From an uncultured Alphaproteobacteria bacterium (lineage in GTDB: Bacteria > Pseudomonadota > Alphaproteobacteria > CAAGCB01 > CAG-977): a stretch of DNA of 64,000 nt. Below, piece by piece: positions 11,671-64,000 of the stretch. The translations under genes were made by a program, and so were the position numbers. How positions within the stretch are numbered: the first letter of the stretch is position 1; the number at the start of each line of letters is the position of its first letter. The notes below the pieces were generated by a model, which did no database searches, was not told the origin of the DNA, and was given only the letters and a program-made list of their open reading frames with translations. The stretch covers positions 18,443 to 82,442 of the forward strand of contig CALXOZ010000007.1 in the NCBI GenBank assembly GCA_944390195.1. The letters are read 5' to 3'.

Positions 11671-11684
11671 AGTTGAAGAAGGTT

Positions 11685-23043: not shown

Positions 23044-23056
23044 GAAAGGGCGAAAA

Positions 23057-23575
23057 ATGGTAAGTGATAAAAAAAAATCAAATGAAATTTTTTTCGCTTC
23101 GGCTCTTTCTTTTTTAATTTTATTCCCGATGCTGTTCTGGATGTTGCCGACTTTTGTTTTTTTCTGTCTTAGTATGTTGCCGACATTTATCGTTCTGATT
23201 ACTGAGATCCATTCAAAAACAAAATTAAAATACAAATGGCTATGTGTCGGCGGACTGAATTTTGCCGGAGCATTGCCTTTTTTGTTTCAATTATGGTTCG
23301 GCAATAATACGTTACAAGAAGCTGTTACGATATTTTTTTGTAACACGGCTTTTGTTATGATTTATTGCTCGGCTTTGGTCGGATGGTTCTTTTATCGTTT
23401 TATTCCTGCAATTGTTTCTGTTTTTTTAGAAATGTCGGATCAACGGCGCCTTGTTTATTTACAAGAGTTACAAACGAAATTAATTGCGAAATGGGGAAAA
23501 GAGGTTAGTTTTGAAGACAACCCTTTCCTGATTGTAAAAGAAAAAATTTCTTCTTCAAAAGACGATTTTTCCTGA
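23057..23575 (+). CDS. Small 4-TM membrane protein, probably co-transcribed with the PKL gene.
   Basis: 172 aa. It begins 14 nt after the upstream stop. Duplicated MLPTF segment (FPMLFWMLPTFVFFCLSMLPTFIVLIT) and four hydrophobic helices. Confidence 0.4.
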   Translation: MVSDKKKSNEIFFASALSFLILFPMLFWMLPTFVFFCLSMLPTFIVLITEIHSKTKLKYKWLCVGGLNFAGALPFLFQLWFGNNTLQEAVTIFFCNTAFVMIYCSALVGWFFYRFIPAIVSVFLEMSDQRRLVYLQELQTKLIAKWGKEVSFEDNPFLIVKEKISSSKDDFS

Positions 23576-23829
23576 TATTGTCTGATGAGCTATCTGTCAT
23601 ATTTACATTTTTGAACCTTTTTTACAAAAGCTTGAAAGGATTACTGTTTGTTTTTGTGAAATAACGAGCAAAACATGGCTTTGATTTATCTGTTTTTTTT
23701 ATCATAACATATCGTTTTATTTCCTTTTTGATGAAACATCTGTCTTGGTCTCTAATTGTCTTTGGAAATTTTTCAGTCGTGTAAGATGTTCTTGTTTAAT
23801 AAGGATTTGGAGTCATAGGAGGAAGCTTT

Positions 23830-23898
23830 ATGCATTCTGGTAAGTGTAAAATGCACCAGTTTAAATTCGTAAAACGTGTGGTTGTTTTTAGATTGTAA
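23830..23898 (+). CDS. Candidate small ORF (22 aa, MHSGKCKMHQFKFVKRVVVFRL) with a canonical AGGAGG SD.
   Basis: AGGAGG at 23817-23822, 7 nt before the ATG. Below the ORF-track size cut-off. Basic peptide in an otherwise empty 420-bp intergenic region. Confidence 0.2.
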   Translation: MHSGKCKMHQFKFVKRVVVFRL

Positions 23899-23995
23899 AG
23901 AGCACTTTTATTGATGCCGGAAAAATTTTTCACCGGTCAGGGTGAGTTCTTCTTGTTTTCCGAAATGAAACCGATAGAAGGGGTTCCCGTTATGA

Positions 23996-24505
23996 TCAAG
24001 TGTCAAGTTTGCAAAAATATAAGGTATTCGTATCCGTGTCGAATAACCCGATGGTAAGGTTGAAAGAAAATCTTTGCAAAATATCAACTTTTGATTCCGT
24101 GTTATTTTTAACCTGCCTGTCAATCAACAAATAATATCCGTTTCGGATTTCCGGAACCAAGGCGTTTCCGTTATTGTCGTTTAAATATGGTCCGTCGCTG
24201 TGTGTTTTATGCGAAATTCCATAAACCAATGTCCGGACGGTTTGATCAAGAGGAAAGGAACGCCAAAAAGGGTTGGATTTTATTTCTGTAACAACCGTGT
24301 TGTCCTCAAAACTGAAAGTAACGCAAGAGGTTCCATCTCCGTTTCCGCTATGAGTGTCATAATTTGAAATTTCTTTTCCGGCGGACACATCAATTCCAAG
24401 TTCTTTTGAGGCGGTATGTCGGACAGATTCCGGACTGCAGGCAATTAAAATAAAAAGTGAAAGAAGAAAAATACACCCAGCTGAAAAAACTTTTTTCATA
24501 AACAT
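23996..24505 (-). CDS. Hypothetical lipoprotein.
   Basis: Track ORF 23996-24538. The likely start is MFMKKVFSAGCIFLLSLFILIACS, with signal peptide and lipobox LIAC. No family recognised. Confidence 0.45.
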   Translation of the reverse strand: MFMKKVFSAGCIFLLSLFILIACSPESVRHTASKELGIDVSAGKEISNYDTHSGNGDGTSCVTFSFEDNTVVTEIKSNPFWRSFPLDQTVRTLVYGISHKTHSDGPYLNDNNGNALVPEIRNGYYLLIDRQVKNNTESKVDILQRFSFNLTIGLFDTDTNTLYFCKLDT

Positions 24506-25154
24506 ATTTATTTCCAATATATTTGCCTTTGTTGACAATTACGATCATATTATTATATGTTTTCTTGTTTTTTTCGACAAGTTCGGAAATTATATTGTAA
24601 GAATGTTATTATGCTTTGAATAAAAGACGCCGCCTGAACTGTAGCGTGCATGTAAAAAGCATATTATAGTCATTGAAACAGATGACAGCGTAAGAATAGT
24701 TCGGGCAGAATTTTTTTACTCTTTAAGATAATATTAAAAATTGATGTTGCTTCATTAATGCTTTTTTTTACATCACAACGGCATCGTATTGAAAATAAAA
24801 TTTTTATTATACAGTTTTTAATCGTTGCCATACGACATTATCGTTTTATCATAAAAAATATAAACGAATTTGCCATGGAATGGTGAAAATATCAGGGCAG
24901 TGTTTTTTTCTATGCTGTCATTTATAATTTCATTTTAGAATATTAAGTATTTCGTTTCTCTGTATTCAAAGCGATATCCGTTTTTTCTCGGGTATAAAAA
25001 ATACTTTCCGGATCATACTTTTTCCTTCTGATACATGAGGAACACTTGTCAGGCATAGAACGTCTTGCAAGAACCAAATGTCTAATTACTGAAGGTTTTT
25101 CCTCTTTAACAAAGCAGTCTTTTAAAAAGAATAACACCTTATGTTGCGATAAGT

Positions 25155-26630
25155 TTAAAAAGCAGTTGAACGCACGGATTTTTTTTCTTTTCGCCAAGCT
25201 AATGGCAAAAGGAGAACGAAAATCGTCATGTATTCCAATCGTCCCAGCATCATTCCGATGGAAAAGATCCATTTTCCCATATCTGGCAGATTGGCGAAAT
25301 GACCGCTTGAACCGATGACGGGACCGAATGCTATGCCGGTGTTCCCCAGAGCGCACAAAGTTCCGCTGATAACAGTCAGGAAATCAAGTCCCAGTAAAGA
25401 TAAAGACAAAACGGAGCACAAAAAGGAAATCAAAAAAATGGCAATGAAAACAAATACGTCAGAAGAAATTTCTTCTGTAATGGGTTTGCCGTTATATTTG
25501 GCGACGAAAATGCCGTGTGGCAGGATTTTCCGTCTAAGGTACTGTAAGGAAGACAGAAACATGATATTGAATCTGAAGATCTTGATGCCGCCGGAGGTTG
25601 ATCCGCTACACGCACCGACAGATAAGGATAAAGTAAGAAAAGTGATTGCGAAATTTCCCAATTGTTCCAAATCCGTATTGACGAAACCGGTTGAAGTGAT
25701 GATGGAAATGAAATTAAAAGCGGCTATGCGCAAGCTGTCAGCAAAAGACTTGTCTCTCATCAGGCAAAGGTAGGAGGTTAAGAGCAGGATGCAAATCAGG
25801 ACGCAAAAGACGTATGTTTTTATTTGCAGATCATTTTTCAAGCTTTTCCAATTTTTTTTGAACAATAGGTAAAAGGACAACAAAGGCATACCGGAAATAA
25901 ACATAAAAAACGCCAAAATCCATTGTGAAGAGTAATTCAGATCTATGGCCGACGTATTTCTGGGAGCCAATCCACCGGTCGGAATCGTTCCCATTGTAAA
26001 AATTAGTGATTCAAAAGAATCCAATCCTGAAAAGCACAGGCAAAGTGTACACAATATTGTCAATAGTGTATAAACGATCATGATTCTGGCTATGATCTGG
26101 GACGTTTTCGGTAAAGTCTTATCGGATTTGTCTGAAGATTCAGTCGCATACAATTGCATACCGCCGATCCGTAAAAGCGGTAATATTCCCAAAGCAATCA
26201 CGATAATTCCGATGCCTCCGAACCATTGCAACATACCTCGCCATAACAGGATGCCTCTGGGTTGAATGGACAAATCCCGTATGATTGTAGAACCTGTTGT
26301 TGTCAATCCGGACATGGCTTCAAAAAAAGAATCCGTATAGCTTAAAGGATATTGTGAGAAAAAGAAAGGCAATGCCGAAAAGCAACAAACCATCAGCCAG
26401 ACAAGCGATGTCGTCAAGTACATTTCCCGTACGGTTAATTTTTCATATTTATTGTAAAAAGTCGCCGTGAACAAAAGACCGAAGAAAACAGTTACAACCG
26501 AAGCCTGCCAAAATCCGTAAGCCGATATGACATTGTCATCAAAAAAATCAAGCATTCCCGGAATGATCATCGTAATTCCGAACAAAATCAGGATACATCC
26601 CGAAACAAAGAAAGTGATGCCGGCTCTCAT
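25155..26630 (-). CDS. trkH: Trk-type potassium uptake protein TrkH.
   Basis: 491 aa polytopic protein. SGLTTTGSTII and GxTTxG-like selectivity-filter repeats are typical of the TrkH/KtrB family. Confidence 0.85.
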   Translation of the reverse strand: MRAGITFFVSGCILILFGITMIIPGMLDFFDDNVISAYGFWQASVVTVFFGLLFTATFYNKYEKLTVREMYLTTSLVWLMVCCFSALPFFFSQYPLSYTDSFFEAMSGLTTTGSTIIRDLSIQPRGILLWRGMLQWFGGIGIIVIALGILPLLRIGGMQLYATESSDKSDKTLPKTSQIIARIMIVYTLLTILCTLCLCFSGLDSFESLIFTMGTIPTGGLAPRNTSAIDLNYSSQWILAFFMFISGMPLLSFYLLFKKNWKSLKNDLQIKTYVFCVLICILLLTSYLCLMRDKSFADSLRIAAFNFISIITSTGFVNTDLEQLGNFAITFLTLSLSVGACSGSTSGGIKIFRFNIMFLSSLQYLRRKILPHGIFVAKYNGKPITEEISSDVFVFIAIFLISFLCSVLSLSLLGLDFLTVISGTLCALGNTGIAFGPVIGSSGHFANLPDMGKWIFSIGMMLGRLEYMTIFVLLLPLAWRKEKKSVRSTAF

Positions 26631-37870: not shown

Positions 37871-38097
37871 AGTTTGGAAAGGCCGTCCGTTATCATATTA
37901 CAACTGAGAATTGGAATGGAGTGTGTTATAGGCTTATTATGGAAAAGTTTTAAAAGAAAATGAAATATTCGGAGAAAAACGTCAAAATCATTTAAAAATC
38001 TTTTTGTTTTTTCCGGTTGATATTAGTCTTATGGCATATGTTGCAGTTCTTTTGAACTGTTTTGAAAAGCAATGGGTGTTACACAGTCTGTTTGGCA

Positions 38098-38124
38098 TGA
38101 AAAATCCCGCATTTTATGCGGGAT
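38098..38124 (-). terminator. Intrinsic terminator of the 38150-38602 lipoprotein gene.
   Basis: Minus-strand ATCCCGCAT-aaa-ATGCGGGAT stem followed by TTTTTC, 26 nt after the stop. Confidence 0.65.
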
Positions 38125-38149
38125 CTCTTTTCGGTAATTGAATGAAAAT

Positions 38150-38602
38150 CTATTCTTCGCTGAAAATACGATAAGCCTCTGCCGGATCGTCAGTGTCCTG
38201 TACTTTCAAGTCCATCGGGCAAAGTCCAGTTTTCGTCCGGTTGAGTATATTATCCAATACTTGGTCGGCGCTGTATTTTATACCATATTTTTCATAGATT
38301 TTAATTGCCGGCTTAGATATGACCGGTGTGTAAACTTCTTTGACTTGTCCGTAGACGTGTAATAACGCTGATGCTTTTCCAACAATGCGGTCTGCGACAA
38401 AAGCGTCTTTGAACGTGCCGTCATTCAAACGGATTAATAAAGGATCAAGGCCTCTTTCATCATAAAATGTTGTTTTTCCGTCTTTATATACGATAAGGGT
38501 ATGTTCCTTTAACTGATTACGAAGGAAATCCGTGTCAGGACGTTTTGACATTGAACAAGCTATTAATAAAATAGTCATCAAGCCGATAAAAAAAGATTTC
38601 AT
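38150..38602 (-). CDS. Hypothetical lipoprotein.
   Basis: 150 aa. Signal peptide plus lipobox LIACS. No family recognised. It has its own terminator and is flanked by long non-coding DNA. Confidence 0.5.
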   Translation of the reverse strand: MKSFFIGLMTILLIACSMSKRPDTDFLRNQLKEHTLIVYKDGKTTFYDERGLDPLLIRLNDGTFKDAFVADRIVGKASALLHVYGQVKEVYTPVISKPAIKIYEKYGIKYSADQVLDNILNRTKTGLCPMDLKVQDTDDPAEAYRIFSEE

Positions 38603-39090
38603 AATATCAACTCCATAAAAAAGGACATTAGAGAATACAAACCTAAAAAAGTTTTAAGTCAATACAAAAAAGTACATATTTTAAAGGTTTTTTTTACTGT
38701 TGAAAATCTGTTTTACGGATTTATGTAACAGAATAAAGAAAAAGCTATTTTAATCATTGTATGACAATAATGTAGAGACTGATTGATTTGCCATAAAGCG
38801 AAGGGGAAACATAATCTGAAAGAAGGGAAAAAGAAGTCTGTTTATGAAAGATTTCTTCGCCTATTTCCAGTTTTTAAGGTTAATAAAGGTATAAAATGAG
38901 TATAAAGAAGCTAGTTATAAATTTTAATTTTTTATAATATTGTCATCTTTAGCCTTAAAAAATCAATTTGATATAAAGCACTTTGTGGATTTCCATTCAT
39001 TTTTAAAAATCAGGAATGCATTGAAAATATTATTGAATTTTTGTGTGGGCAATGTCATTCAGTTAAAAAAATCTGTCATACGAAAAACGG

Positions 39091-39275
39091 TTTTTCATAT
39101 ATTTATTGGTCTGTATTTTTTGTTGCCGGTTTTATGGTAAAAATTGAACGCCTATGATAGGCATGACAACACGATCGTCTTTAAGCTGATTTAATTGTAG
39201 GAAATTGTTCTGTCATGTATTGGTGAATGTTAAAAATATAAAATAATACAGGATCATCTTTAAAGATGCTTTTTT
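39091..39275 (+). repeat. Copy 1 of a dispersed composite non-coding element, ending in palindrome plus T-run. Candidate sRNA or MITE-like repeat.
   Basis: Three blocks are nearly identical to the reverse complement of 49554-49681. Block A (39091-39134) is TTTTTCATATATTTATTGGTCTGTATTTTTTGTTGCCGGTTTTA. Block B (39215-39237) is ATGTATTGGTGAATGTTAAAAAT. Block C (39252-39275) is GATCATCTTTAAAGATGCTTTTTT. Copy 1 carries an extra 80-bp insert between blocks A and B. Confidence 0.6.
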
Positions 39276-39892
39276 AACAAAATATCCCAAGCTCAAAGCG
39301 AGAGACGCTTTTTATTTCCGTTCAGTCTGGCGGAGTGGCAACCTCTTTGGAGTTTGAACCGCAGGCACGATTTAAAAGACGCTTTCTTAACAAGTGTCTC
39401 CAACACAAGTTTACATCCATACTTTTCTTACATATATGGATATCACCGTATTTTTCTGTAAATCCCCCGTACTCCCATAAACCGGAAATTACCTTATTTA
39501 TCCGACTTTTCATTCCTCATTTTTCCCAAAAACGATCGAACAGAACGCGTTTAATAAATCACAACCGCTTAAAAAAGATGTGCTCGCCGCCTCACTGGGC
39601 TAAACAACCTCTCCATAAACATCAAAAAAACAAAATATACAAAATACTTTATCCCATTAATCTCAGAGAATATTTTCTCTCGATCATTCAATAAACAGGA
39701 ATATACCTAACCACTAAAACACTTCACACTCTTTCACAGGCAATACAAAAAAATGTTTTCTATTCTTTTTTATAAAAAACATCTCATCTCTGTTCATTCC
39801 TACTAAAAAAACATACCTAAGCTCATTCCTAAAAAATAAGGGCGAATCCTGTGAAACTTTTTTATTCTATAAAACCGCAGAATTGTTTTTCA

Positions 39893-39925
39893 CAAAAAAA
39901 ATCCTCCAAGACAGGAGGATTTTTC
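39893..39925 (-). terminator. Intrinsic (bidirectional) terminator, about 200 nt downstream of the pmm-like gene.
   Basis: AAAAAAATCCTCC-aagaca-GGAGGATTTTT. The 7-8 bp GC-containing stem has an A-run on one side and a T-run on the other. Confidence 0.55.
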
Positions 39926-40077
39926 GTTTTACGGATATAAAAAAACATTTAAGCCTTTTGAAATGATGAGTTATAGCCCACTTCTTTTATTGTTTCAAAA
40001 GATAAATATCTTTGCCAGTACTTTAAAAGACATATATCAAATGTAAATCTTTTAAATTTATTCTAGAATAAAGACAA

Positions 40078-43290: not shown

Positions 43291-44097
43291 TTACGAAGAG
43301 ATGTCTTCTCCTATTGCCTGCAAAATGGCGCGTAATTCTTGTCTTGCTGCGATGTGAGGCATTGACATTGAGATTCCCACCTTGGGTTTTCCGACATCAA
43401 GAAGCGTCAATCCTTTTAAAAAAAGTTCTCTGAACACGACCCGTTCCCCCAATCCGGACAAAGCTGTAAAATTGATTCTTTTACCCAAGGCTTCCAGCAA
43501 CTTCCAAATCAATTTTTCATTTCGTGTCGAAACATGCATCATACGGTTGCGCAAAACGAACCATCTTGTTTGAGGCTTTTTTTGCGAAGCGCGTTGTTGG
43601 CGTGCCTGCCAAACGGTTTGAGCATAATGTGCCGGAGATTTGATCGTCAGTGTTTCCGGTTCGATTTGAGCCAGAACATCCAAATCAATCAGACTGTCGT
43701 TCAACGGTGTAATCAAAACGTCTGCGACAACATGAGCCAAACGGAACAAATAGCTGTCTGCCCCCGGTGTGTCGATGATGATCACATCGTTTTCTTTTTG
43801 CAATTTGTCCAGTTGTTTTATAAAAGCGTCTTCATCTTCTTTTCTTTGTTGGGGATCGGGGTTTGCGCGCACAGTTACACTAAGGTGTACGGGCAGTTCC
43901 AAAGCGACATGATGCAATTCGGCATAATCCGCCCTGTTTTGAATATAATGAGTCAACGTCCCTTGACGCCCGTCCAGATCAATTGAAGCGACCGTCTTTT
44001 TTTGATGTAGCAACCAAGCTATCAAATGCATTGCCAACGTTGATTTTCCGGTACCGCCTTTTTCGTTACCGATTACAATTATTTTCCCTTTCGGCAT
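43291..44097 (-). CDS. mipZ: ParA/MinD-superfamily ATPase of the MipZ type (division-site positioning).
   Basis: Track ORF runs to 44145. The ATG at 44097 (MPKGKIIVIGNEKGGTGKSTLAMHL) gives a deviant Walker A GNEKGGxGKST, which is characteristic of MipZ rather than ParA (KGGVGKTT). About 268 aa. Confidence 0.7.
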   Translation of the reverse strand: MPKGKIIVIGNEKGGTGKSTLAMHLIAWLLHQKKTVASIDLDGRQGTLTHYIQNRADYAELHHVALELPVHLSVTVRANPDPQQRKEDEDAFIKQLDKLQKENDVIIIDTPGADSYLFRLAHVVADVLITPLNDSLIDLDVLAQIEPETLTIKSPAHYAQTVWQARQQRASQKKPQTRWFVLRNRMMHVSTRNEKLIWKLLEALGKRINFTALSGLGERVVFRELFLKGLTLLDVGKPKVGISMSMPHIAARQELRAILQAIGEDISS

Positions 44098-44176
44098 AAG
44101 TATCCCCGCTTTTTTTTGAACAGATCCTAACCAGCGGAAGACCAAAATTCAAGATTTTTAAATTCGATAAAAAAAT

Positions 44177-44206
44177 CACGATTTATTTGTTATTTTTTTC
44201 ACGATT
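44177..44206 (+). promoter_or_regulatory. Direct repeat TCACGATT(T/A)A, two copies spaced 22 bp apart, upstream of hydC.
   Basis: TCACGATTTA at 44177-44186 and TCACGATTAA at 44199-44208. The two-helical-turn spacing suggests a direct-repeat operator. Confidence 0.3.
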
Positions 44207-44213
44207 AAGACTT

Positions 44214-44257
44214 GCTTTTAACGCATCGAAAGTTTAAAACTTAAAATGCGTAAAAGC
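44214..44257 (+). promoter_or_regulatory. Nested 44-bp palindrome 60-100 nt upstream of the hydC start, either an operator or a 5'-UTR hairpin.
   Basis: GCTTTTAACGCAT-cga-AAGTTTAAAACTT-aaa-ATGCGTAAAAGC. The outer arms are complementary apart from one extra A. The inner 13-bp palindrome is perfect. Confidence 0.35.
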
Positions 44258-44315
44258 CGAAACAATCAAGACCGATTTTAACCGGCTACCCGTCATACTT
44301 TTTGGAGAAAGCTAA

Positions 44316-44822
44316 ATGAGTGAAACGACAGGGCATGAAATATCAGCCTTTGATAAAATAGAAAAGGTCAAGGAGATTTTGGATAAGAATGGTCGCCAAA
44401 GTTCTCGATTGATCCCCATTTTGCAGGAAGTACAGGAAGTTTACCGTTACCTGCCTAAGGAAATTATGAATTATGTTGCACAAGCGCTCGGCATTCCTGC
44501 CGGTCGTGTTTACGGTGTTGCGACGTTTTACGCCCACTTTTCTTTAGACCCTAAAGGGCGTTACTTAATCCGTTTATGCGACGGCACAGCCTGTCATGTA
44601 CGCGGATCGGAACCGATATTGCACGCTTTACGTGACAAATTGGGATTGAGCGCGGAAAAACCAACAACCGATGATATGATGTTTACAATTGAAACCGTTT
44701 CCTGTCTGGGCGCTTGCGGTTTGGCTCCGGTCGTCGTTGTGAACGAAGACGTTCATGGACAAATGACACCGGATAAAGCGGTTAAAATGATTGATGATAT
44801 TTTGCAGGCGGAGAATTCTTGA
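44316..44822 (+). CDS. hydC: NuoE-like [2Fe-2S] thioredoxin-fold subunit of a trimeric [FeFe] hydrogenase (HydC/HndA type).
   Basis: 168 aa. Cys pattern C...C-x35-CxxxC (RLCDGTACHVRGS...VSCLGACGLAP) typical of NuoE/HydC. The stop overlaps the hydB start. Confidence 0.8.
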   Translation: MSETTGHEISAFDKIEKVKEILDKNGRQSSRLIPILQEVQEVYRYLPKEIMNYVAQALGIPAGRVYGVATFYAHFSLDPKGRYLIRLCDGTACHVRGSEPILHALRDKLGLSAEKPTTDDMMFTIETVSCLGACGLAPVVVVNEDVHGQMTPDKAVKMIDDILQAENS

Positions 44823-46723
44823 TGACTGAAAATTTGGAAAAAATTGCTTCTGACTACAAAGCAATGCACGACACCGTAACCCGCCGTATGGTAATTTGCG
44901 CAGGGACGGGGTGTATTGCAAACGGATCGTTGAAACTGTACGAAGCCCTTTTAAAAGAAATTCAAAAAGCCGGTATCAATGTCGCTGTTGAATTGAAATC
45001 CGAAGACCATAATAAAAAATCTCTGTTATCCAAAAGCGGCTGTCAGGGATTTTGTCAGATGGGACCTTTGTTGACAATAGAACCGGACGGTATTTTATAT
45101 TGTCGCGCACATGCGGCGGATGCTGCTGAAATCGTAGAAAAAACACTTAAAAATAACGAATTGATTGACCGTTTGGTCTATAAAAACCCGACGGACGGTT
45201 CTCATTGCCGCGGGACGAACGACATTCCGTTTTATACACGCCAACGTCGTACCGTTTTAAAAGCCTGCGGTCATGTCAATCCGGAAGATATTCGCGAATA
45301 TATTTATCATGACGGTTATAAAGCTGCTCAAAAAGCCTATACGGAAATGAGTGATGAAGACGTTTGCAAAGAAATTTTGGATTCCGGTTTGCGCGGACGT
45401 GGCGGCGGCGGTTTCCCGACAGGTTTGAAATGGGATTTGACCCGTAAAGTCAAAGGTGAGAAAAAATACGTTATTTGTAACGCTGATGAAGGCGATCCGG
45501 GGGCTTTTATGGATCGTTCCGTTATGGAAGGCAATCCTCACTCCGTTATTGAAGGAATGATGATCGCCGCAAGGGGAATCGGTGCCGATGAAGGTTACAT
45601 TTATGTCCGTGCCGAATATCCCTTGGCTGTCAAGCGTATGCGTAAAGCCATTGAGGACGCTCAAAACATCGGCGTTCTGGGACACGACATCTTCGGTTCC
45701 GGTAAAAATTTCATCCTGCACGTCATGGAAGGGGCGGGCGCGTTCGTTTGCGGTGAAGAAACAGCATTAATGGCTTCCATTGAAGGCTCGCGCGGTATGC
45801 CGCGTCCGAAACCGCCTTTCCCAGCTCAGTCGGGGTTGTGGGGAAAGCCGACGGTCATTAATAACGTTGAAACTTTAGCAAGCGTTCCGATGATCATTCT
45901 GCACGGTGCCGCGAATTACCGCTCCGTCGGTACGCAAAAATCCCCTGGAACAAAAACATTTGCAGTAACGGGGCATGTCGCAAACACAGGCTTGATCGAA
46001 GTCCCCTTTGGAACGACTTTGCGTGAAATCATCTTTGATATCGGCGGCGGCGTCTTGAACGCAAAAGGCGAAGTCGATAACGATAGTTTCAAAGCCGTGC
46101 AAATCGGCGGTCCGTCCGGCGGATGCCTGACTGCGGAACATTTGGATTTGCCGATTGATTTCGATTCTTTGCGTTCTGCAGGCGCTATGGTCGGTTCGGG
46201 CGGTCTTGTCGTCATGAACAAAAACACTTGCATGGTCAGTGTCGCCCGTTTCTTTATGCAATTTACGCAAAACGAATCATGTGGCAAATGTACTCCGTGC
46301 CGTGAAGGAACAAAACAAATGCTCGCCCTGCTGGATGATATCATGGCGGGTCGCGCTACCGAAGAAACTCTGGATCTGTTGGAAGAAACCGCTAAAACCG
46401 TCCAAAAAGCCTCTTTATGCGGTTTAGGTAAGACAGCTCCGAATCCGGTATTGTCCACTTTACGTTATTTCCGGGACGAATATTTGGCGCATGTACGCGA
46501 TAAAACATGCCCAACCGGTCAATGCAAAGCTTTGGCAAAACCGGAAATCGATCCGATTCTGTGCCGCGGTTGTACCGCGTGCGCACGGAAATGTCCTGTC
46601 GGGGCCATATCTGGAACGGTTAAAAAACCACATGTTATTGATCCGACAAAATGTATTAAGTGCGGTGTTTGCGCCGCAACGTGTAAGTTCGGTGCCGTAA
46701 AAGGCATCGCTCCCCGTGCTTGA
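44822..46723 (+). CDS. hydB: NuoF-like NADH-binding flavoprotein subunit of a bifurcating [FeFe] hydrogenase (HydB/HndC type).
   Basis: The track ORF starts at TTG 44819, but the ATG at 44822 (TGATG overlap) is preferred. An N-terminal thioredoxin-like 2Fe-2S domain is followed by the NuoF core (GLRGRGGGGFPTGLKW FMN/NADH site; the CxxCxxC N3 cluster appears as ESCGKCTPCREG). Two 4Fe-4S ferredoxin motifs sit at the C-terminus. Confidence 0.85.
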   Translation: MTENLEKIASDYKAMHDTVTRRMVICAGTGCIANGSLKLYEALLKEIQKAGINVAVELKSEDHNKKSLLSKSGCQGFCQMGPLLTIEPDGILYCRAHAADAAEIVEKTLKNNELIDRLVYKNPTDGSHCRGTNDIPFYTRQRRTVLKACGHVNPEDIREYIYHDGYKAAQKAYTEMSDEDVCKEILDSGLRGRGGGGFPTGLKWDLTRKVKGEKKYVICNADEGDPGAFMDRSVMEGNPHSVIEGMMIAARGIGADEGYIYVRAEYPLAVKRMRKAIEDAQNIGVLGHDIFGSGKNFILHVMEGAGAFVCGEETALMASIEGSRGMPRPKPPFPAQSGLWGKPTVINNVETLASVPMIILHGAANYRSVGTQKSPGTKTFAVTGHVANTGLIEVPFGTTLREIIFDIGGGVLNAKGEVDNDSFKAVQIGGPSGGCLTAEHLDLPIDFDSLRSAGAMVGSGGLVVMNKNTCMVSVARFFMQFTQNESCGKCTPCREGTKQMLALLDDIMAGRATEETLDLLEETAKTVQKASLCGLGKTAPNPVLSTLRYFRDEYLAHVRDKTCPTGQCKALAKPEIDPILCRGCTACARKCPVGAISGTVKKPHVIDPTKCIKCGVCAATCKFGAVKGIAPRA

Positions 46724-46740
46724 ATGAAAGGTGAAGCTTG

Positions 46741-48723
46741 ATGACTGAAAAGAAAACTCTGTTCATTGACGGCAAAGAAGTCGTAATCGAAAATGAACGC
46801 AATATTTTAGAGCTGTGCCGTAAAGCGGGGATCGATATCCCGACGTTTTGCTACCAGCCGGAATTGAGTATCTATGGCGCATGCCGGCTATGCTTGGTTG
46901 AAATCGAAGGCAGAGGTATTTTGTCTTCGTGTTCCACACCTCCTGAAGCAGGCTTGAAAATAAAAACAAATACGGATGAAATCCGTCAATTGCGCCGTAC
47001 GACAATGGAATTGCTGTTGGCGTCCCATCCTCAAGATTGTTTGAAGTGCGGGAAAAGTACACACTGCAAATTGCAGGAAATCGCCCGTAAGGTGGGAGTA
47101 AAAGAAATCCGTTACAAACATTCGGTCAAAGACCTGCCGGTAGATAACAGTTCTTATTCTTTGGTGCGTGATCCCGCAAAGTGTATTTTGTGTGGCAATT
47201 GCGTGCGGATGTGCGCTGAAATTCAGGGAATCGGAGCCGTCAACTTTGCCAATCGCGGATCAAATAGTACGGTTATTACGGCGTTTGGTAAGGATATGGC
47301 TAAAACGGAATGTGTCAACTGCGGTCAATGTGCCGCCGTTTGCCCGACCGGAGCGTTACAAATCAAGTCTGAAATTGATGAAACAATGAAAGACATCAAC
47401 AATCCCGAAAAGATAACGGTTGTCCAAATAGCTCCGGCCGTCCGTGTCGCCATAGCAGAAGAATTTGGTCTGCCTGCCGGTGTGGATTCAACGAAAAAGA
47501 TTGTTTCCGCTTTAAAAAAGATCGGTGTCGATTATGTTTATGATACCAACTTTACAGCAGACATGACGATTGTCGAGGAAGCCACTGAATTTGTACAACG
47601 CTTACAGAACGGCGGCACATTCCCGATGTTTACCTCATGTTGTCCGGCATGGATCAAATATGCGGAAACGTATTATCCGTCTTTATTAAAGAACATCAGT
47701 TCCTGTCGTTCTCCGCAAGGAATGTTTGGCGCAATCGTGCGTAAAGCGATGCCTGGCGTTACCGGAAAAGACAACAAAGATATCGTTTCGATTTCCATTA
47801 TGCCCTGCACGGCCAAAAAGTTCGAAGCCCGTCGCGATCAGTTCATTCATGACGGCAAAGCGGAAATTGATCATGTCCTGACAACGCAAGAATTGGCTGA
47901 GATGTTGAAATCAGCCGGTATCAATCTGGCGGAAATCGATGATGTCGAATTGGATATGCCGTTAGGCATGTACACCGGTGCCGGCGTTATTTTCGGCGTT
48001 ACCGGAGGCGTGATGGAGGCCGTGTTGCGTTTTGCTGCGGAAAAAGTCGGCGGCGTCAAAGACGCAATTGAATTTAAAAACGTTCGCGGTTTTGAAGGCA
48101 TTCGTGAAGCTGAAGTCGAATTAAACGGCAGAACGTTCAAATTAGCGGTTGTTCATGGGTTGGCGAATGCCGGAAAAGTGGCTCAATCCGTTATTGATGG
48201 AACATGTAAGTATGATTTGATCGAAGTGATGGCTTGCCCGATGGGATGTGTCGGCGGTGCTGGACAGCCTGTCAGCGAAGGTTGTGTCAAAAAGAAACTT
48301 CGTGCTCAAGGATTATATAAGGCTGATGAATCGTGTGCATTGCGTAAATCTCAAGAGAACACAGCTGTTTATGACGTTTACGAAAAATACTTTGAAGGTG
48401 GTCCCGCAACACATGCGGCGCATGAGAATCTACATACGACATATGTTTGCCGACCGAAAACGGAAATGGAAATGAGCATCAATAAGGCTGATAAGGATGC
48501 TGTTCGAGTCGAGCTGAATTTATCAGGTGAAAATATGCGCAAAGGTGTTGAAAACCTGATGGGTGACGTTTTGGCGAAAATCCGTGAGAACGACTTGCAA
48601 AAACGAACAAAAGTCGTAGTTACTTTTGGACATACGGGAGAGGATCCGATGGTTTCAGTCGCTGGAAAAGCGGTTAATCCTGATGTGGACGATGTTATAA
48701 AAGCCATTATTGAGAATAAATAA
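46741..48723 (+). CDS. hydA: [FeFe]-hydrogenase catalytic subunit (group A, HydA) with N-terminal 2Fe-2S and 4Fe-4S domains.
   Basis: All three H-cluster motifs are present: L1 TSCCPAW, L2 MPCTAKKFE and L3 EVMACPMGCVGGAGQP. N-terminal plant-type 2Fe-2S (CRLC...C) and F-cluster CxxCxxCxxxCP motifs. Track ORF starts at TTG 46738; the ATG at 46741 sits after a GGTGAAG SD. Confidence 0.85.
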   Translation: MTEKKTLFIDGKEVVIENERNILELCRKAGIDIPTFCYQPELSIYGACRLCLVEIEGRGILSSCSTPPEAGLKIKTNTDEIRQLRRTTMELLLASHPQDCLKCGKSTHCKLQEIARKVGVKEIRYKHSVKDLPVDNSSYSLVRDPAKCILCGNCVRMCAEIQGIGAVNFANRGSNSTVITAFGKDMAKTECVNCGQCAAVCPTGALQIKSEIDETMKDINNPEKITVVQIAPAVRVAIAEEFGLPAGVDSTKKIVSALKKIGVDYVYDTNFTADMTIVEEATEFVQRLQNGGTFPMFTSCCPAWIKYAETYYPSLLKNISSCRSPQGMFGAIVRKAMPGVTGKDNKDIVSISIMPCTAKKFEARRDQFIHDGKAEIDHVLTTQELAEMLKSAGINLAEIDDVELDMPLGMYTGAGVIFGVTGGVMEAVLRFAAEKVGGVKDAIEFKNVRGFEGIREAEVELNGRTFKLAVVHGLANAGKVAQSVIDGTCKYDLIEVMACPMGCVGGAGQPVSEGCVKKKLRAQGLYKADESCALRKSQENTAVYDVYEKYFEGGPATHAAHENLHTTYVCRPKTEMEMSINKADKDAVRVELNLSGENMRKGVENLMGDVLAKIRENDLQKRTKVVVTFGHTGEDPMVSVAGKAVNPDVDDVIKAIIENK

Positions 48724-59169: not shown

Positions 59170-59885
59170 GCGATGACGCATTGGTACATATCTCCAAAAA
59201 ACGTCTTTTTCACCCAGATGAGTTTGTCTGTTTCAGGGGCAAAGTCCTTGATTTCGTTATACCAAAGGCTTTCAGCGAATGGCTCGTACAAACGGTTGAA
59301 CAACTTGACGGGATATTTTAACAAATGAAATTTTTGAGGGCGGGCATAGTCGATAAAAATCATTTTCCCTCTTGATTTTAAAGCGTTGAATGCTCTTTTC
59401 AATGTGGCTTTTTTGCGTGCGTCCGGCAGTTCGTGTAACACAAAATAGCCAAGCACGACATCATAACGGCAATCATTTTCTATTGTAAAATCCCGTTTTT
59501 TCATTTCCACATTCAACCAAGGCGAAACTCGCCGCTTTGCGGCTTGGATATGGGCGAAGGAAACGTCTTCAATGTGATAAACCCCCTGCGAATCCATTCT
59601 TGAAGCAACGTTTCTTTCAAATGAACCCGACGCTATCCCCAACTGCAAAACATCATTGCCGGGAACGATTTCGCTGGTAACGATTTTGGTTAATTTCCTG
59701 CCGTAAAAAAAATTCCCGAGTCCCGCGACCCATTCGTCATCGAAAAATTTTGATAAAAACGGATCCAGATAACGTCGTTTGTACACGGATTGTAAATATT
59801 CGGGAATGTGAGACTTTTCCTTTTTGGAAGAAAGTCCAGAGGAAGTTAATGAAGTAGAGGAAGTGTCGTTTTTATTTTCAGTCAT
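59157..59885 (-). CDS. Class I SAM-dependent methyltransferase with a low-complexity Ser/Thr-rich N-terminus.
   Basis: 242 aa. Rossmann-like methyltransferase core (VLQLGIASG..., DVVLGYFVLHELPD). The N-terminus MTENKNDTSSTSLTSSGLSSKKEKS is low complexity. Substrate unknown. Confidence 0.5.
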   Translation of the reverse strand: MTENKNDTSSTSLTSSGLSSKKEKSHIPEYLQSVYKRRYLDPFLSKFFDDEWVAGLGNFFYGRKLTKIVTSEIVPGNDVLQLGIASGSFERNVASRMDSQGVYHIEDVSFAHIQAAKRRVSPWLNVEMKKRDFTIENDCRYDVVLGYFVLHELPDARKKATLKRAFNALKSRGKMIFIDYARPQKFHLLKYPVKLFNRLYEPFAESLWYNEIKDFAPETDKLIWVKKTFFGDMYQCVIAQRR

Positions 59886-59888
59886 TAT

Positions 59889-60515
59889 TTAATCAATCAG
59901 TCCTAATTTCTTTCCGGCAATTACAGCTCCGGTCCGGTTGGCAACATTAAGGGTTTTTAAAATGGCGGTTACATGAAGTTTGACGGTTCCTTCAGATAAG
60001 TCCAGCTCTTTGGCTATGATTTTGTTGGATTTGCTTTGTCCCATCAAGCGCAAAACATCCAGTTGTCGCGGGGTTAACAGCCCCTTGTGTTCCAAAGGGG
60101 GGTGCGTATGTTCGGACAGATTCAACAATTCCGTGGGCAGGTACAAACCGCCCGATAAAATTAACTGTAATGCGCTTAAAATTAATTTGCTTGACGCGGT
60201 TTTGGGAATGAAACCCGAAGCGCCGATATCAACGGCTTGTAAAACATTTTCGGATTCCGTTACAGCCGATAAAATGACAACGGGTGTTTCCGGATTGTGT
60301 TCCTTTAATAAACGCAACGATTCACGCCAGTTCAATCCAGGCATTGCTAAATCGGTCAGAATGAGGTCGTAAAAAACGGTTCCGTCTGCTTTTTCCTGCA
60401 ATTCCTTGTGGTTGTGTACGGTATCAATAGCGATATTGCTATCCAAACCGGATAAAACCAAACGCAACCCGTCTAAAAACAATTCGTGATCATCGGCAAT
60501 TAAAATTTTCAACAT
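59889..60515 (-). CDS. Two-component response regulator, NarL/FixJ (LuxR-type HTH) family.
   Basis: Track ORF runs to 60560. The ATG at 60515 gives MLKILIADDHELF..., with phospho-acceptor DLAMPG and a C-terminal LuxR HTH (LTPRQLDVLRLMGQSKSNKIIAKELDLSEGTVKLH). No histidine kinase gene is adjacent. Confidence 0.75.
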   Translation of the reverse strand: MLKILIADDHELFLDGLRLVLSGLDSNIAIDTVHNHKELQEKADGTVFYDLILTDLAMPGLNWRESLRLLKEHNPETPVVILSAVTESENVLQAVDIGASGFIPKTASSKLILSALQLILSGGLYLPTELLNLSEHTHPPLEHKGLLTPRQLDVLRLMGQSKSNKIIAKELDLSEGTVKLHVTAILKTLNVANRTGAVIAGKKLGLID

Positions 60516-60577
60516 TGGAAACTCCGATCTGTTTAAGCTATAGTGTAATGGTAAAAACAATTTAAAAACAGGAAAAA

Positions 60578-61822
60578 ATGTTTAAAGGAAAAGTTTTTGA
60601 TCTAGGGCGCCAAGGAGACGGCGTATTGAAGCATGACGGTGAAAATATCTTCATACCGGGAGGGCTTTGGGGCGAAACGGTGGAATACGAGATTGTCGAC
60701 CGTCAACAGGGGCGTTTGACAAAAATTCTGGATCCTTGTGTGGACAGGGTTCAACCTGTTTGCTCTTTTTTTTATGAGTGTGGCGGGTGTAATTTACAAC
60801 ACTTGAATGTTGAAGCCTACTGTCGTTTTAAAATGAAGTGTTTGAAAGAGTTGCTCAAATCCGCAGAGATTGTAACGGATTTTGACGATCCGGTTTTTAT
60901 CAAACCGGAAAGTCGCAGACGTGCAACTTTCGCTTTTTCTTGGGACGGATCGAAACGGCGATTCGGTTTTAACGCAAAACACAGTACAAAAATTGTAGAA
61001 ATAAATTGTTGTACTGTTTTGGTTCCGGAACTGGAAAAGCTGATACCGGCTTTGCGTTCGTATTTAAAGGATCAAAAACATTTTTTCCCCAAAAAATCAG
61101 GTGCGGGAGACATATTTGTCCAGTTGACGGATAGCGGAGCGGATATTTTGATCACTTTTCCTTTCAAACCTGATTTGCAATGGCGCCAAAGTGCCGCCGT
61201 CTTCAGCCATGAAAATGATATTGCCCGTATTTCTTGGCGTACCGGTGTAAATCAAGAACCGGAACCTGTTGTCATGTTACATGTACCGGAAATAAAAATC
61301 GGCGATTTTATTTTGTGTCCTCCTGCGGGCGCTTTTTTACAGCCCAGTGTTGAAGGACAGCAGGTTTTAACGCAAACGGTCGTCGAATATGCCGGTAAGG
61401 CGAAAAGAATTTGCGATTTATTTTGTGGAACAGGAACGTTTGCCTTGTCTTTGCTTAAAAAGAAAAGAACTGTCGTCGGGGTGGACAATGTTTCTTGTGC
61501 TTTGTCGGCTTTGTATGCCGCTTCCTCAAGCAGAATAAAAACACATCTGCGCGATTTGTTTGAAACCCCTCTTTATCCTGATGAACTTGACGGTTTCGAT
61601 GCTGTCGTTTTCGATCCGCCCAGAGCCGGTGCAAAAGCGCAATGCGAACAACTCGCCTTATCGGACGTACCGCGTGTCATTGCTGTTTCTTGCAATCCAG
61701 TAACCTTTATACGGGACGCCCGTATTTTAATGCAGGGCGGTTACCGATTAAATCGGTTGCGTCCGGTTGATCAATTCGCTTTTACCCCCCATATGGAACT
61801 GGTCGCCTTGTTTGAAAAGTAA
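60578..61822 (+). CDS. 23S rRNA (uracil-C5)-methyltransferase, RlmD/RumA-like, with TRAM domain and 4Fe-4S cluster.
   Basis: 414 aa. N-terminal TRAM region, a Cys cluster (CSFFYECGGCNLQH...C), SAM motif DLFCGTGTF and a C-terminal catalytic Cys region (VSCNP). Confidence 0.75.
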   Translation: MFKGKVFDLGRQGDGVLKHDGENIFIPGGLWGETVEYEIVDRQQGRLTKILDPCVDRVQPVCSFFYECGGCNLQHLNVEAYCRFKMKCLKELLKSAEIVTDFDDPVFIKPESRRRATFAFSWDGSKRRFGFNAKHSTKIVEINCCTVLVPELEKLIPALRSYLKDQKHFFPKKSGAGDIFVQLTDSGADILITFPFKPDLQWRQSAAVFSHENDIARISWRTGVNQEPEPVVMLHVPEIKIGDFILCPPAGAFLQPSVEGQQVLTQTVVEYAGKAKRICDLFCGTGTFALSLLKKKRTVVGVDNVSCALSALYAASSSRIKTHLRDLFETPLYPDELDGFDAVVFDPPRAGAKAQCEQLALSDVPRVIAVSCNPVTFIRDARILMQGGYRLNRLRPVDQFAFTPHMELVALFEK

Positions 61823-61823
61823 T

Positions 61824-62459
61824 TTACTCTTCATCCTCTTTTTGTAAATTCCTGCAAGCGAACTGTAAAAAGCTGGCAATCAGATTTTCATTCCACACTT
61901 TAATATTATGAGGGACTTTTAAAACTGCCGGTGTGAAATTCCAAATATACTTTATATTGGAGTCGATCAAGAACTCGGCTGTTTTTTGCGCGCAAGCGCG
62001 TGGTACAGTTAAAATGGCCAGTTCTATTCCCAACCGTTGCATCAGATTGGGCAAACGGGAAATATGAAAAATTTGTTTGTTATTGACAGTCATGTCGACT
62101 TTTTGAGGGTCGTTGTCAAACAAAGCCAATATGTTCAGACCGTAGTCGTTAAAGGCACTGTATTTCGCCAAAGCCAGTCCTAAATGTCCGGCGCCGACGA
62201 TAACGGCATCTTTGGTCATCTTAAATCCCAAAGTGTCTTCAATCGAATCCTTTAGCGCGTGCACGCTGTAACCGACACGGCAACGACCGGCATTGTTGAG
62301 CAGCTTGAAATCCTTTCGCACTTGAGAATCGTCGATATTCAAGCGTGCGGCGATTTGCGGGCTGGAAATCGTGTCAATATCGTTATCAATGTATTCTATC
62401 AGAATACTGTGGTAAAGCGTCAAGCGTCCCAGTACTTTTTCAGGGATTTCTGTTTTCAT
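61824..62459 (-). CDS. rex: Redox-sensing transcriptional repressor Rex (NADH/NAD+ sensor).
   Basis: The ATG at 62459 gives MKTEIPEKVLGRLTLYHSIL... The winged-helix N-domain, the Rossmann motif AVIVGAGHLG, and the AILTVP and NFTP motifs match Rex. The track ORF starts at TTG 62477. Confidence 0.8.
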   Translation of the reverse strand: MKTEIPEKVLGRLTLYHSILIEYIDNDIDTISSPQIAARLNIDDSQVRKDFKLLNNAGRCRVGYSVHALKDSIEDTLGFKMTKDAVIVGAGHLGLALAKYSAFNDYGLNILALFDNDPQKVDMTVNNKQIFHISRLPNLMQRLGIELAILTVPRACAQKTAEFLIDSNIKYIWNFTPAVLKVPHNIKVWNENLIASFLQFACRNLQKEDEE

Positions 62460-62645
62460 GGCAATTCCTAAATTCAAATACCCTTTAAGATCGACAGTTT
62501 AGGCTGAAAAAGTAAAAAAATCCAGTCTGGATTTCATTTATTTGAGATTTTTTTCACTATTTCAAACGGCACAGAAATAAAGGATTTTTCTGAAAAATAT
62601 TTTCTGTAACGATTGATTTTTGTTCTTTGTTAAGCTAGATTTTGC

Positions 62646-62659
62646 GTGAACAAAATCAC
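62646..62659. promoter_or_regulatory. Candidate Rex operator (GTGA-N6-TCAC) in the divergent rex / ferredoxin promoter region.
   Basis: cGTGAacaaaaTCACt matches 8 of 10 positions of the TGTGA-N6-TCACA Rex consensus. It is centred about 30 bp upstream of the ferredoxin ATG (62683). Confidence 0.4.
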
Positions 62660-62682
62660 TAATTCCAAAGATGAGGAAAATA

Positions 62683-62955
62683 ATGTCCGAAAACGGGAAA
62701 ATAGCCATTACAGTGTGTATGGGAAGTTCATGTTTTGCACGCGGGAATGCGGAAAATCTGTCTTTTATTGAAAATTTTGTTAAAGAAAAAAAATTGGATG
62801 CTAAAATCGATTTGTGCGGGGCACGTTGTGAAAACAAATGTGCGACAGGGCCGCATGTGAAAATCAACGGTACGGTATATTGCGGTGTTACGCCGGAAAT
62901 GCTTAAAGCCGTCTTGAATAAAGCTGTGGAAGGAAATAAAGTTGTAGAAGGATAA
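62683..62955 (+). CDS. Thioredoxin-like [2Fe-2S] ferredoxin (NuoE/HndA-type), standalone.
   Basis: 90 aa from the ATG at 62683, preceded by an AGGA SD. Cys motif CMGSSCFARG...CGARCENKCATGP (Cx4C...Cx3C). Confidence 0.7.
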   Translation: MSENGKIAITVCMGSSCFARGNAENLSFIENFVKEKKLDAKIDLCGARCENKCATGPHVKINGTVYCGVTPEMLKAVLNKAVEGNKVVEG

Positions 62956-62959
62956 TTCA

Positions 62960-64000
62960 ATGGATAAATCCAGTCCCGTATATACCTTGGAAAATGAATG
63001 TCATGATTGTTATAAATGTGTACGCCAATGCAGTGTGAAAGCCATTCGTGTTAAAAACGGGCACGCATCGGTGATAGCGAATAAATGTATTGCTTGCGGG
63101 CATTGTGTTGAAATTTGTCCTTCAAAGGCGAAACGTGTCCGCGATGATGTCAATAAAGCCAGAGCCTTGTTGGCATCGGGAAAGGACGTTTATGTTTCTT
63201 TGGCTCCAAGTTGGGCGGGGTTACTGGATTGTTCCAAACATGAAATCGTATCGGCATTAAAGCAATTGGGGTTTAAAGGGGTTTCGGAAACCGCTTTGGG
63301 GGCGCAGGAAGTTTCCATAGAAACAACGAAAATCATTTCCAATTCTGAACGTAATTTGTTCATTTCAACCGCTTGCCCCGCCATTGTCGATTACATCCGT
63401 TATTATTTGCCGGAATATACTCCTTATTTAACACCGATTGCTTCTCCGGCATTGACGCATGCCATGTTTTTAAAAAAGACTTACGGTGAAGAAATCGGTG
63501 TCGTCTTCATCGGTCCGTGCATTGCCAAAAAAAACGAAGCCGACCGCCATCCCGATTTAATCAATGTTTCTTTGACATTTAAAGAATTAATGGCTTGGCT
63601 TGAGGAGGCGCGCATCACATTAAAAGCTCCGGTTGATCCTTGTGAAACTTTCGTTCCGTATGAAGCTGATGAAGGGGCTTTGTACCCCATAGAAGGCGGA
63701 ATGAACAAAACAATAGAGATATGCGGGGCTCCGAAAGATATCCAGCTCATTAACATCAGTCCGGTGCAACGGTTTAAAGCGGCTTTGAAAAATTTGGATC
63801 CCGACACCTTAAAACGCAAGGTGTTTATCGAGGCTTTGGCTTGTGAAGGCGGGTGCACGGCAGGACCGGGGGCGAATTCGTCCAAAGCCGGATTGGAAGT
63901 GGTTTCGGATATTTTAAATTATTCTCATTTGCGCGAACGGGTGCCGGATCAGCCAGAAGTCGTTGTTAATGAAAAGTTTGATCCCGCTCCGATCGAAAAA
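62960..64000 (+). CDS. Partial (3'-truncated) putative sensory-type [FeFe]-hydrogenase-like protein (group C/D, HydS-like).
   Basis: Not in the ORF track because it runs off the window. ATG at 62960 follows a GAAGGA SD. Two 4Fe-4S ferredoxin motifs sit at the N-terminus (CHDCYKCVRQC...CIACGHCVEICP). The H-cluster motifs are variant: L1 STACPAIV (TSCCP with the first Cys changed to Ala), L2 GPCIAKKNE, and L3 EALACEGGCTAGPG. Confidence 0.65.
   Translation, partial: MDKSSPVYTLENECHDCYKCVRQCSVKAIRVKNGHASVIANKCIACGHCVEICPSKAKRVRDDVNKARALLASGKDVYVSLAPSWAGLLDCSKHEIVSALKQLGFKGVSETALGAQEVSIETTKIISNSERNLFISTACPAIVDYIRYYLPEYTPYLTPIASPALTHAMFLKKTYGEEIGVVFIGPCIAKKNEADRHPDLINVSLTFKELMAWLEEARITLKAPVDPCETFVPYEADEGALYPIEGGMNKTIEICGAPKDIQLINISPVQRFKAALKNLDPDTLKRKVFIEALACEGGCTAGPGANSSKAGLEVVSDILNYSHLRERVPDQPEVVVNEKFDPAPIEK

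Follow-up and report, generated by a model that had tools for sequence, protein, structure and literature searches.

A candidate Rex-controlled, phosphatase-linked sensory [FeFe]-hydrogenase operon in an uncultured gut alphaproteobacterium

The 64,000 nucleotides (nt) analyzed here from contig CALXOZ010000007.1 (GCA_944390195.1), the whole of which we call the window, end inside a gene cluster in which a gene for a Rex-type redox repressor is divergent from genes for a small ferredoxin and for an unusual [FeFe]-hydrogenase-like protein. This raises the questions of whether that protein is a catalytic enzyme or a sensor, which regulator acts on the control region shared by these genes, and how such a cluster came to be in an alphaproteobacterial genome. 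We consider it probable, and with good confidence, that what is seen at the window edge is the control region, followed by the first genes, of a phosphatase-linked sensory-hydrogenase operon (group C3, hfsABCD-type) of an uncultured gut alphaproteobacterium. The parts of the cluster that lie in the window are the following:

61824-62459, reverse strand: rex, redox-sensing repressor, 211 amino acids (aa) plus stop, identified by profile matches and identity to the protein P0121
62460-62682: control region of 223 nt between the divergent rex and fdx-hydS genes, with conserved blocks in an alignment of nine loci
62683-62955, forward strand: fdx, thioredoxin-like [2Fe-2S] ferredoxin (HfsA-like) of 90 aa, identified by PF01257
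62960-64000, forward strand: hydS, HydS-type [FeFe] hydrogenase, interrupted by the end of the window after 347 codons, identified by PF02906, Fer4 and motif alignments

The hydS start lies four bases past fdx. In the fragment, the hydrogenase domain (H-domain) is matched by PF02906 (E = 3e-43), and the two N-terminal 4Fe-4S motifs read in the initial annotation are recovered as Fer4 family matches. We aligned the fragment to HydA of Thermotoga maritima (TmHydA, 7p5h), to two other bifurcating enzymes and to CpI of Clostridium pasteurianum, for which the best-scoring entry is a chain that itself reads FTSACPG at the L1 motif. In L1, ISTACPA of HydS stands opposite FTSCCPG of CpI, with the proton-relay residue C299 replaced by Ala138 and the ligand Cys300 kept as Cys139. 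In L2, GPCIAKKNE stands opposite MPCTSKKFE, with M353 replaced by Gly185 and both Cys187 and K190 kept, and in L3, EALACEGGCTAGPG stands opposite EVMACHGGCVNGGG, with M497 replaced by Leu293 and both Cys295 and Cys299 kept. The TACP reading of L1 and the deviations in L2 and L3, first noticed in the initial annotation, are therefore borne out by the comparison with CpI and the solved enzymes. The alignment to CpI and TmHydA also places all four H-cluster ligands, on which the initial annotation had made its reading depend, in HydS (C139, C187, C295 and C299, corresponding to C300, C355, C499 and C503 of CpI), together with the L2 lysine, K190. In sensory enzymes, Ala occupies the C299 position in about 43% of the sequences and Gly the M353 position in about 51%, while M497 is not conserved (PMC10055695); the substitutions in HydS fit these statistics.

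The profile models of the catalytic groups point in the same direction. HydS scores 170-185 bits with TIGR04105 (group B, cut-off 450) and 86-91 bits with TIGR02512 (group A, cut-off 406), therefore it is not a catalytic-type member, and an assignment to group A or B is ruled out by these scores together with the altered TSCCP and MPC motifs, in agreement with the initial choice of a HydS-type over a catalytic H-domain. Group D (M2e) enzymes are without PAS and have Ser or Thr at the M353 position (PMC8163306). This group was also rejected, given the Gly at that position and a PAS-like region in the C-terminal part of HydS (described below), therefore the protein fits group C (M2f): C299 is not kept (Ala138), and a small residue (Gly185) stands in for M353. 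Leu at the M497 position is common to HydS and the group D enzyme TamHydS, in a position that is conserved in neither group.

The C-terminus of HydS and the end of the operon were read from the public contig L033, which we treat as belonging to the same species: it is 99.75% identical to positions 59238-64000 of the window over 4763 nt, and its HydS is identical to the window fragment in 347 of 347 residues. The full protein has 569 aa. Its C-terminus carries NCGGCGYNTCHGLAKALLAGEAEPSMC, a Cx2Cx4Cx16C cluster motif, as defined for the M2e and M2f classes (PMC8163306), and PF04060 matches with 40 bits (cut-off 23). Homologues of about 570 aa share Fer4, H-domain and PF04060 matches, and some of them also match PAS families; at E <= 0.05, PAS_8 is matched by all 26 HydS homologues (best E = 7.8e-6) and PAS_9 by 19. 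A profile of the C-terminal part aligns with the PAS domain of Aer2 over about 110 residues (E = 0.017) and also with the Fe-S regions of CFeSP and RnfB. Following hydS, the contig shows:

L033:4686-5867, reverse strand: pp2c, SpoIIE/PP2C phosphatase of 393 aa, 3' of hydS, its start overlapping the hydS stop
L033, after pp2c: fdx2, second 2Fe-2S ferredoxin of 89 aa
L033, after fdx2: hydB, [FeFe] hydrogenase of 483 aa
L033, after hydB: terminator-like GC-rich hairpin with a T-run
L033, after the hairpin: TonB-dependent receptor gene

Extending the gene past position 64000, as the initial annotation had proposed in the search for an output domain, thus revealed a C-terminal Fe-S motif and a weak match to PAS, as well as a PP2C phosphatase encoded next to HydS. 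The last enzyme of the operon belongs to group B, as judged by its orthologue in the locus L003 (TIGR04105, 509 bits; cut-off 450). In HydDB, C3 comprises phosphatase-linked putative sensors and B is the colonic type (PMC5037454). By the gene order of L033, HydS is encoded with a Ser/Thr phosphatase of the PP2C type, which is the mark of C3, and the PP2C gene is present in all related loci, in all of which fdx precedes hydS. The PP2C proteins of the alphaproteobacterial and Gastranaerophilales loci are 56-96% identical over the whole length. Their C-terminal region (residues ~235-393, about 160 aa) has no Pfam family and no sequence match in PDB.

It could be that the HydS-like protein is no sensor at all, and that it joins the ferredoxins and the group B enzyme in a multi-subunit Hfs hydrogenase, as a working catalytic subunit. 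The conservation of all H-cluster ligands would allow it, and reversible turnover of H2 has been measured for the relatives TmHydS and TamHydS (PMC10055695, PMC8163306). In Thermoanaerobacterium saccharolyticum, where HfsB is a PAS-carrying HydS homologue in the four-gene hfsABCD operon, deletion of the whole operon lowers hydrogenase activity, but deletion of hfsB by itself raises it (PMC5707799). The replacement of the proton-relay Cys by Ala and of both framing Met residues, the scores far under those of the catalytic models, the C-terminal cluster motif, the weak PAS match and the adjacent phosphatase argue against a catalytic subunit, and we regard this explanation as improbable.

As for the regulator, the rex product is, by domain and equivalog criteria, the redox-sensing repressor Rex, as it had been annotated from the sequence: NF003994 (NCBIfam) matches with 224 bits (cut-off 130) and NF003996 with 196 (cut-off 138), PF06971 identifies the N-terminal winged-helix domain (56 bits) and PF02629 the Rossmann NAD(H) domain (62 bits), with a GxGxxG motif that reads VGAGHLG. 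The identity of the gene thus stood, and only the product length had to be corrected, from 217 to 211 aa. The shorter protein, beginning with MKTEIPEKV, is exactly matched by P0121 on L033, while the exact-sequence look-up of the 217-aa form (an open reading frame, ORF, with a TTG start) gave no record, its start being too far upstream.

In the alignment of the control regions of nine related loci, conserved blocks stand out against a mean column identity of 73%. Four elements could be delimited:

62646-62659: candidate Rex box A, GTGA-N6-TCAC, directly 3' of the inferred -10 hexamer and 24 nt 5' of the fdx start codon
62544-62557: Rex box B, GAGA-N6-TCAC (GAGA-N6-TCACTAT to 62560), nearer rex, a candidate autoregulatory site
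62613-62641, forward strand: inferred fdx-hydS promoter, TTGATT, 17 nt, TAGATT, from conservation only
62518-62534: conserved palindrome AAATCCAG-T-CTGGATTT, after an invariant A-run, between box B and the rex start

Box A is the site that had been pointed out in the shared promoter, and it holds: it is the single exact occurrence of GTGA-N6-TCAC in the window (shuffled sequences give an expectation of 0.58), and by our own arithmetic about 0.002 would be expected in the 223-nt intergenic region, on which grounds we reject a chance origin. Box B had escaped the initial annotation. No sites of the window other than boxes A and B come within one mismatch of GTGA-N6-TCACTAT, box B itself having one. 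With up to two mismatches there is no enrichment in the window (9 sites, 10.6 expected). In all nine loci the right half of box A, AAATCACTA, and TCACTAT of box B are invariant, as is TTGATTTTT of the promoter, with TA[GA]AT conserved. A generic scan of 62400-62750 for sigma-70 promoters and terminators called none, the promoter given here fitting 8 of 12 positions. Two more distant loci, L002 and L008, have perfect GTGA-N6-TCAC at both boxes, and box B is perfect in L009 too. Four perfect boxes are found in L002, L008 and L009, two of them preceding adhE (L002:14652-14871). There one box of L002 follows TTGATT-17-TACATA, a layout like that of TTGATT-17-TAGATT 5' of box A.

A position matrix built from the four L002 sites only was applied to the window. 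Its four best distinct sites are 44162-44183 (16.6 bits), 62540-62561 (box B) and 44185-44206 (both 16.0), and 62642-62663 (box A, 13.0-13.4), with three sites at 16.0 bits or more against 0.2 expected from shuffles. All four fall in just two hydrogenase control regions, the second of which belongs to another operon of the window:

43291-44145, reverse strand: mipZ, divergent from hydCBA (PF09140, 306 bits)
44162-44206: two Rex-like boxes, GATA-N6-TCACGAT and GTTA-N6-TCACGAT, which the matrix ranks first and third
44316-48723, forward strand: hydC (NuoE-like, 168 aa), hydB (NuoF-like, 634 aa) and hydA (661 aa, group A)

By its predicted products, hydCBA is a trimeric, bifurcating-type [FeFe] hydrogenase operon (TIGR02512, 499 bits for hydA). 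The box pair lies within the 170-nt mipZ/hydCBA intergenic region (44146-44315), nearer mipZ than hydC. The motif GTGA-N6-TCAC[T/G]AT thus precedes rex, the sensor operon, hydCBA and adhE in this clade, and Rex of Caldicellulosiruptor bescii represses hydrogenase genes and itself, with a consensus of the TTGTGAANNNNTTCACAA type (PMC6391272). We suggest that Rex probably binds the boxes and that hydCBA is probably a further member of its regulon.

Several points weigh against this reading of the sensor and its regulator. In its left half, box A reads GTGA in four loci, but five close relatives have GGGA there, and at the 14 specified positions of TTGTGAANNNNTTCACAA boxes A and B match 10 and 11, respectively, this consensus alone not being selective; the classical 18-nt Rex consensus with up to four mismatches is found at about 60 places in the window, as unselective in A+T-rich DNA. 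The TGTGA-N6-TCACA spacing is common to CRP-type sites. The PAS_8 match of HydS on L033 is weak (16.8 bits, under the Pfam cut-off of 21.8), and it is from that contig, outside the window, that the HydS C-terminus and the remaining operon genes were read. No genes for the maturases HydE, HydF and HydG are among the window ORFs scanned. Finally, both H2 sensing by HydS and Rex binding are predictions from sequence, and the sensory role is called putative even for the characterized relatives.

Part of these points would fit a different regulator, for instance one of the CRP/FNR family, with Rex acting elsewhere: core and spacing of the boxes equal those of CRP-type sites, the full Rex consensus is fitted only in part, and the left halves are degenerate. 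The boxes, however, adjoin rex in two separate lineages and precede adhE and hydrogenase operons, typical targets of Rex (PMC6391272), and, as a weak point given that the sequence covers 64 kb only, no CRP-family gene is among the scanned ORFs of the window. We think it unlikely that another regulator owns these sites, and keep Rex as their probable ligand.

The arms of the palindrome between box B and rex are conserved in nine of nine loci, while its center varies. On the rex-sense strand it resembles a short hairpin followed by a U-run. As an RNA element it was rejected, since the fold is no better than in shuffled sequences (z = 0.62) and there is no Rfam match; another site of protein binding, or a leader element, is conceivable.

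The first gene of the operon, preceded by GAGGA 6 nt 5' of its ATG, had been taken as a NuoE-type 2Fe-2S ferredoxin divergent from rex. A thioredoxin-like 2Fe-2S ferredoxin it is, by the PF01257 match (41.5 bits, cut-off 24.8) and Cys12, 17, 45 and 49 of the 90-aa protein, which fit a Cx4C...Cx3C spacing. The NuoE/HoxE equivalog models gave 28-32 bits against cut-offs of 141-224, with only their C-terminal half covered, therefore the likeness is one of fold only and the protein is not NuoE or HoxE proper. A 94-aa version was without match in the exact-sequence look-up, the ORF start being too far upstream.

The initial annotation had also suggested an alphaproteobacterial host and a horizontally acquired, possibly rewired module. 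The host finds support both in the window, with mipZ and many housekeeping genes, and in the nearest genomes, which are gut and rumen metagenome-assembled genomes (MAGs) labelled Alphaproteobacteria or Rhodospirillaceae, with HydS 75-90% identical. MipZ is typical of Alphaproteobacteria. The cluster and its flanking genes (a response regulator, RlmD, M16 peptidases and PGI recur in the MAGs) stay together in nine contigs of eight related gut alphaproteobacterial assemblies. These data support an uncultured gut alphaproteobacterium as the host. That the contig is instead chimeric or wrongly binned, with a cluster from a Firmicute or Melainabacterium, is very improbable, since in spite of the closest homologues outside the clade being in Gastranaerophilales and in MAGs labelled Clostridium, the locus has the guanine plus cytosine (G+C) content of the rest of the window (42%), shares one 64-kb stretch with mipZ and the housekeeping genes, and keeps its flanks in independently assembled MAGs labelled Alphaproteobacteria; on the G+C match and this gene context a mis-binned contig was rejected.

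Outside the clade, the next relatives are Gastranaerophilales (L012-L026; 54-59% identity). In these, adhE, rex, fdx, hydS, pp2c, fdx2 and hydB are co-directional, with genes 45-71% identical to the alphaproteobacterial counterparts. Such synteny of seven genes across phyla, at 55-70% identity, makes a horizontal origin of the cluster likely. The transfer would be old, as the locus has the G+C content of the window and keeps its flanks in the nine contigs. To our knowledge, Rex is absent from most Alphaproteobacteria, which adds to the transfer reading, and the class of this host is not among the taxa for which we know of Rex. A literature search combining Rex, Alphaproteobacteria and hydrogenase found no paper.

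The rewiring, on the other hand, did not stand. A diderm MAG of another lineage (L034, L035) has the same divergent layout of rex and fdx-hydS-pp2c-fdx-hydB, with two perfect boxes in the rex-fdx region and a TCACGAT flank, therefore the arrangement is not a lineage-specific rewiring. Its Rex is 79% identical to that of the window and its HydS (P0035) 59%. This Rex is closer to the window protein than those of Gastranaerophilales (57-72%). The MAG is labelled Clostridium sp., a doubtful label, as genes of outer-membrane proteins (OEP, AsmA) are beside the cluster. The position of adhE also shifts among the loci: one alphaproteobacterial subclade (L002, L008 and L009) has it 3' of hydB, along with two perfect boxes, and in Gastranaerophilales it is 5' of rex. 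In the species of the window (L033), adhE is absent from the locus.

Some other regions of the window deserve a record. Two stretches are low in G+C (22001-26000, 36.6-36.9%; 38001-40000, 32.9%) compared with about 43% elsewhere. A 682-aa ORF with no Pfam match (20995-23043) runs into the first one, and a TM1506/DUF1893 gene (38150-38602, reverse strand) lies inside the second. At 1590-9225 (forward strand), a gene for a bacterial alpha-2-macroglobulin of 1840 aa is directly followed by one for a bifunctional transglycosylase/transpeptidase (PBP1C-like), a pairing known in Gram-negative bacteria. Genes for aconitase B, an isocitrate-dehydrogenase-like protein (weak partial match to the monomeric enzyme) and citrate synthase are in a row at 11673-17279 (forward strand), which suggests an oxidative branch of the tricarboxylic acid cycle in a fermentative-looking genome.

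How could the cluster work? At a low NADH/NAD+ ratio, a Rex dimer would sit on box A and on box B near the rex promoter, and both the operon and rex would be repressed; with NADH build-up, Rex would leave the DNA and the operon would be expressed. Rex probably controls hydCBA in the same way, as well as adhE in those relatives that have it in the locus. HydS would then bind H2 at a slow H-cluster deficient in proton relay, with the small 2Fe-2S ferredoxin as its likely redox partner, and the signal could pass through the C-terminal cluster and PAS to the PP2C phosphatase and so to the phosphorylation state of a target. As a result, the H2 partial pressure would tune the split of electrons between H2 production and other sinks.

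A wider scenario, which we regard as rather unlikely, is that the rex-hfs module and the Rex-boxed hydCBA form one fermentative H2 package, obtained from gut Firmicutes or Melainabacteria when the lineage became a strict anaerobe, and that PP2C, through its uncharacterized C-terminal domain of 160 residues, might couple H2 signalling with the circuit of Rex and NADH. If true, it would be a two-input switch (H2 and NADH), mechanistically undescribed in any organism. For the sensory operon under probable Rex control, only the host is unexpected: proteins and logic are already known, and no new mechanism or family is implied. With this locus, an uncultured host-associated lineage of Alphaproteobacteria is added to those with the putative H2-sensing C3 cluster and with probable control of hydrogenases by Rex, and through the clade motif the Rex regulon in these gut bacteria becomes directly testable. 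Gut H2 production has lately been ascribed mainly to the group B ('colonic-type') hydrogenase (PMC12578642); in these genomes a group B enzyme accompanies the sensor, therefore its regulation is of some practical interest.

The cluster is of a kind already described, in HydDB group C3 (assigned here from the phosphatase linkage), in HydS of Ruminococcus albus and in hfsABCD of T. saccharolyticum. From its published features, TmHydS agrees with HydS in the order of domains (two 4Fe-4S clusters at the N-terminus, H-domain, Cx2Cx4Cx16C and PAS, the last with a weak match only here; PMC10055695, PMC8163306). As here, its residues corresponding to C299 and M353 are Ala (A131) and Gly (G177) (PMC10055695). 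At the M497 position, TmHydS has Ser (S267), whereas Leu is found both here and in TamHydS of group D (PMC8163306).

In T. saccharolyticum, the genetic evidence speaks for a regulatory function, in that deletion of hfsA or hfsB raises adhE expression (PMC5707799). The order of hfsABCD, compared by description only, is that of a small Fe-S protein, HydS, a regulatory protein and a hydrogenase, equal to fdx, hydS, pp2c, (fdx2) and hydB here. This comparison is based on the domain content of HfsA, HfsC and HfsD, which we take to be as just given. Differently from hfsABCD, the locus described here has a second 2Fe-2S ferredoxin gene, which separates pp2c from hydB, and a directly adjacent, divergent rex.

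In R. albus 7, a cluster of eight genes is 111-fold down in co-culture with an H2 consumer; it includes a ferredoxin-only hydrogenase, AdhE, a group C hydrogenase (H-cluster and PAS) and a Ser/Thr phosphatase, and the proposed model is one of direct H2 sensing (PMC6776011). That species also has a trimeric bifurcating hydrogenase, as at 44316-48723 of the window, so that the enzyme trio is the same. It is, however, a Firmicute rather than a gut alphaproteobacterium, its linked catalytic enzyme is A1 where group B is found here, and adhE belongs to its cluster and is absent from the locus in the species of the window. Zheng et al. (2014) reportedly list rex among the genes of that cluster.

For the regulator, the closest comparison is with the Rex regulons of Clostridia and Caldicellulosiruptor, in which [FeFe] hydrogenase genes, adhE and rex are repressed through palindromes of 18-20 base pairs, TTGTGAANNNNTTCACAA (Ravcheev et al. 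2012; PMC6391272). In contrast with those sites, the motif found here, GTGA-N6-TCAC[T/G]AT, has a strong right half and a degenerate left one.

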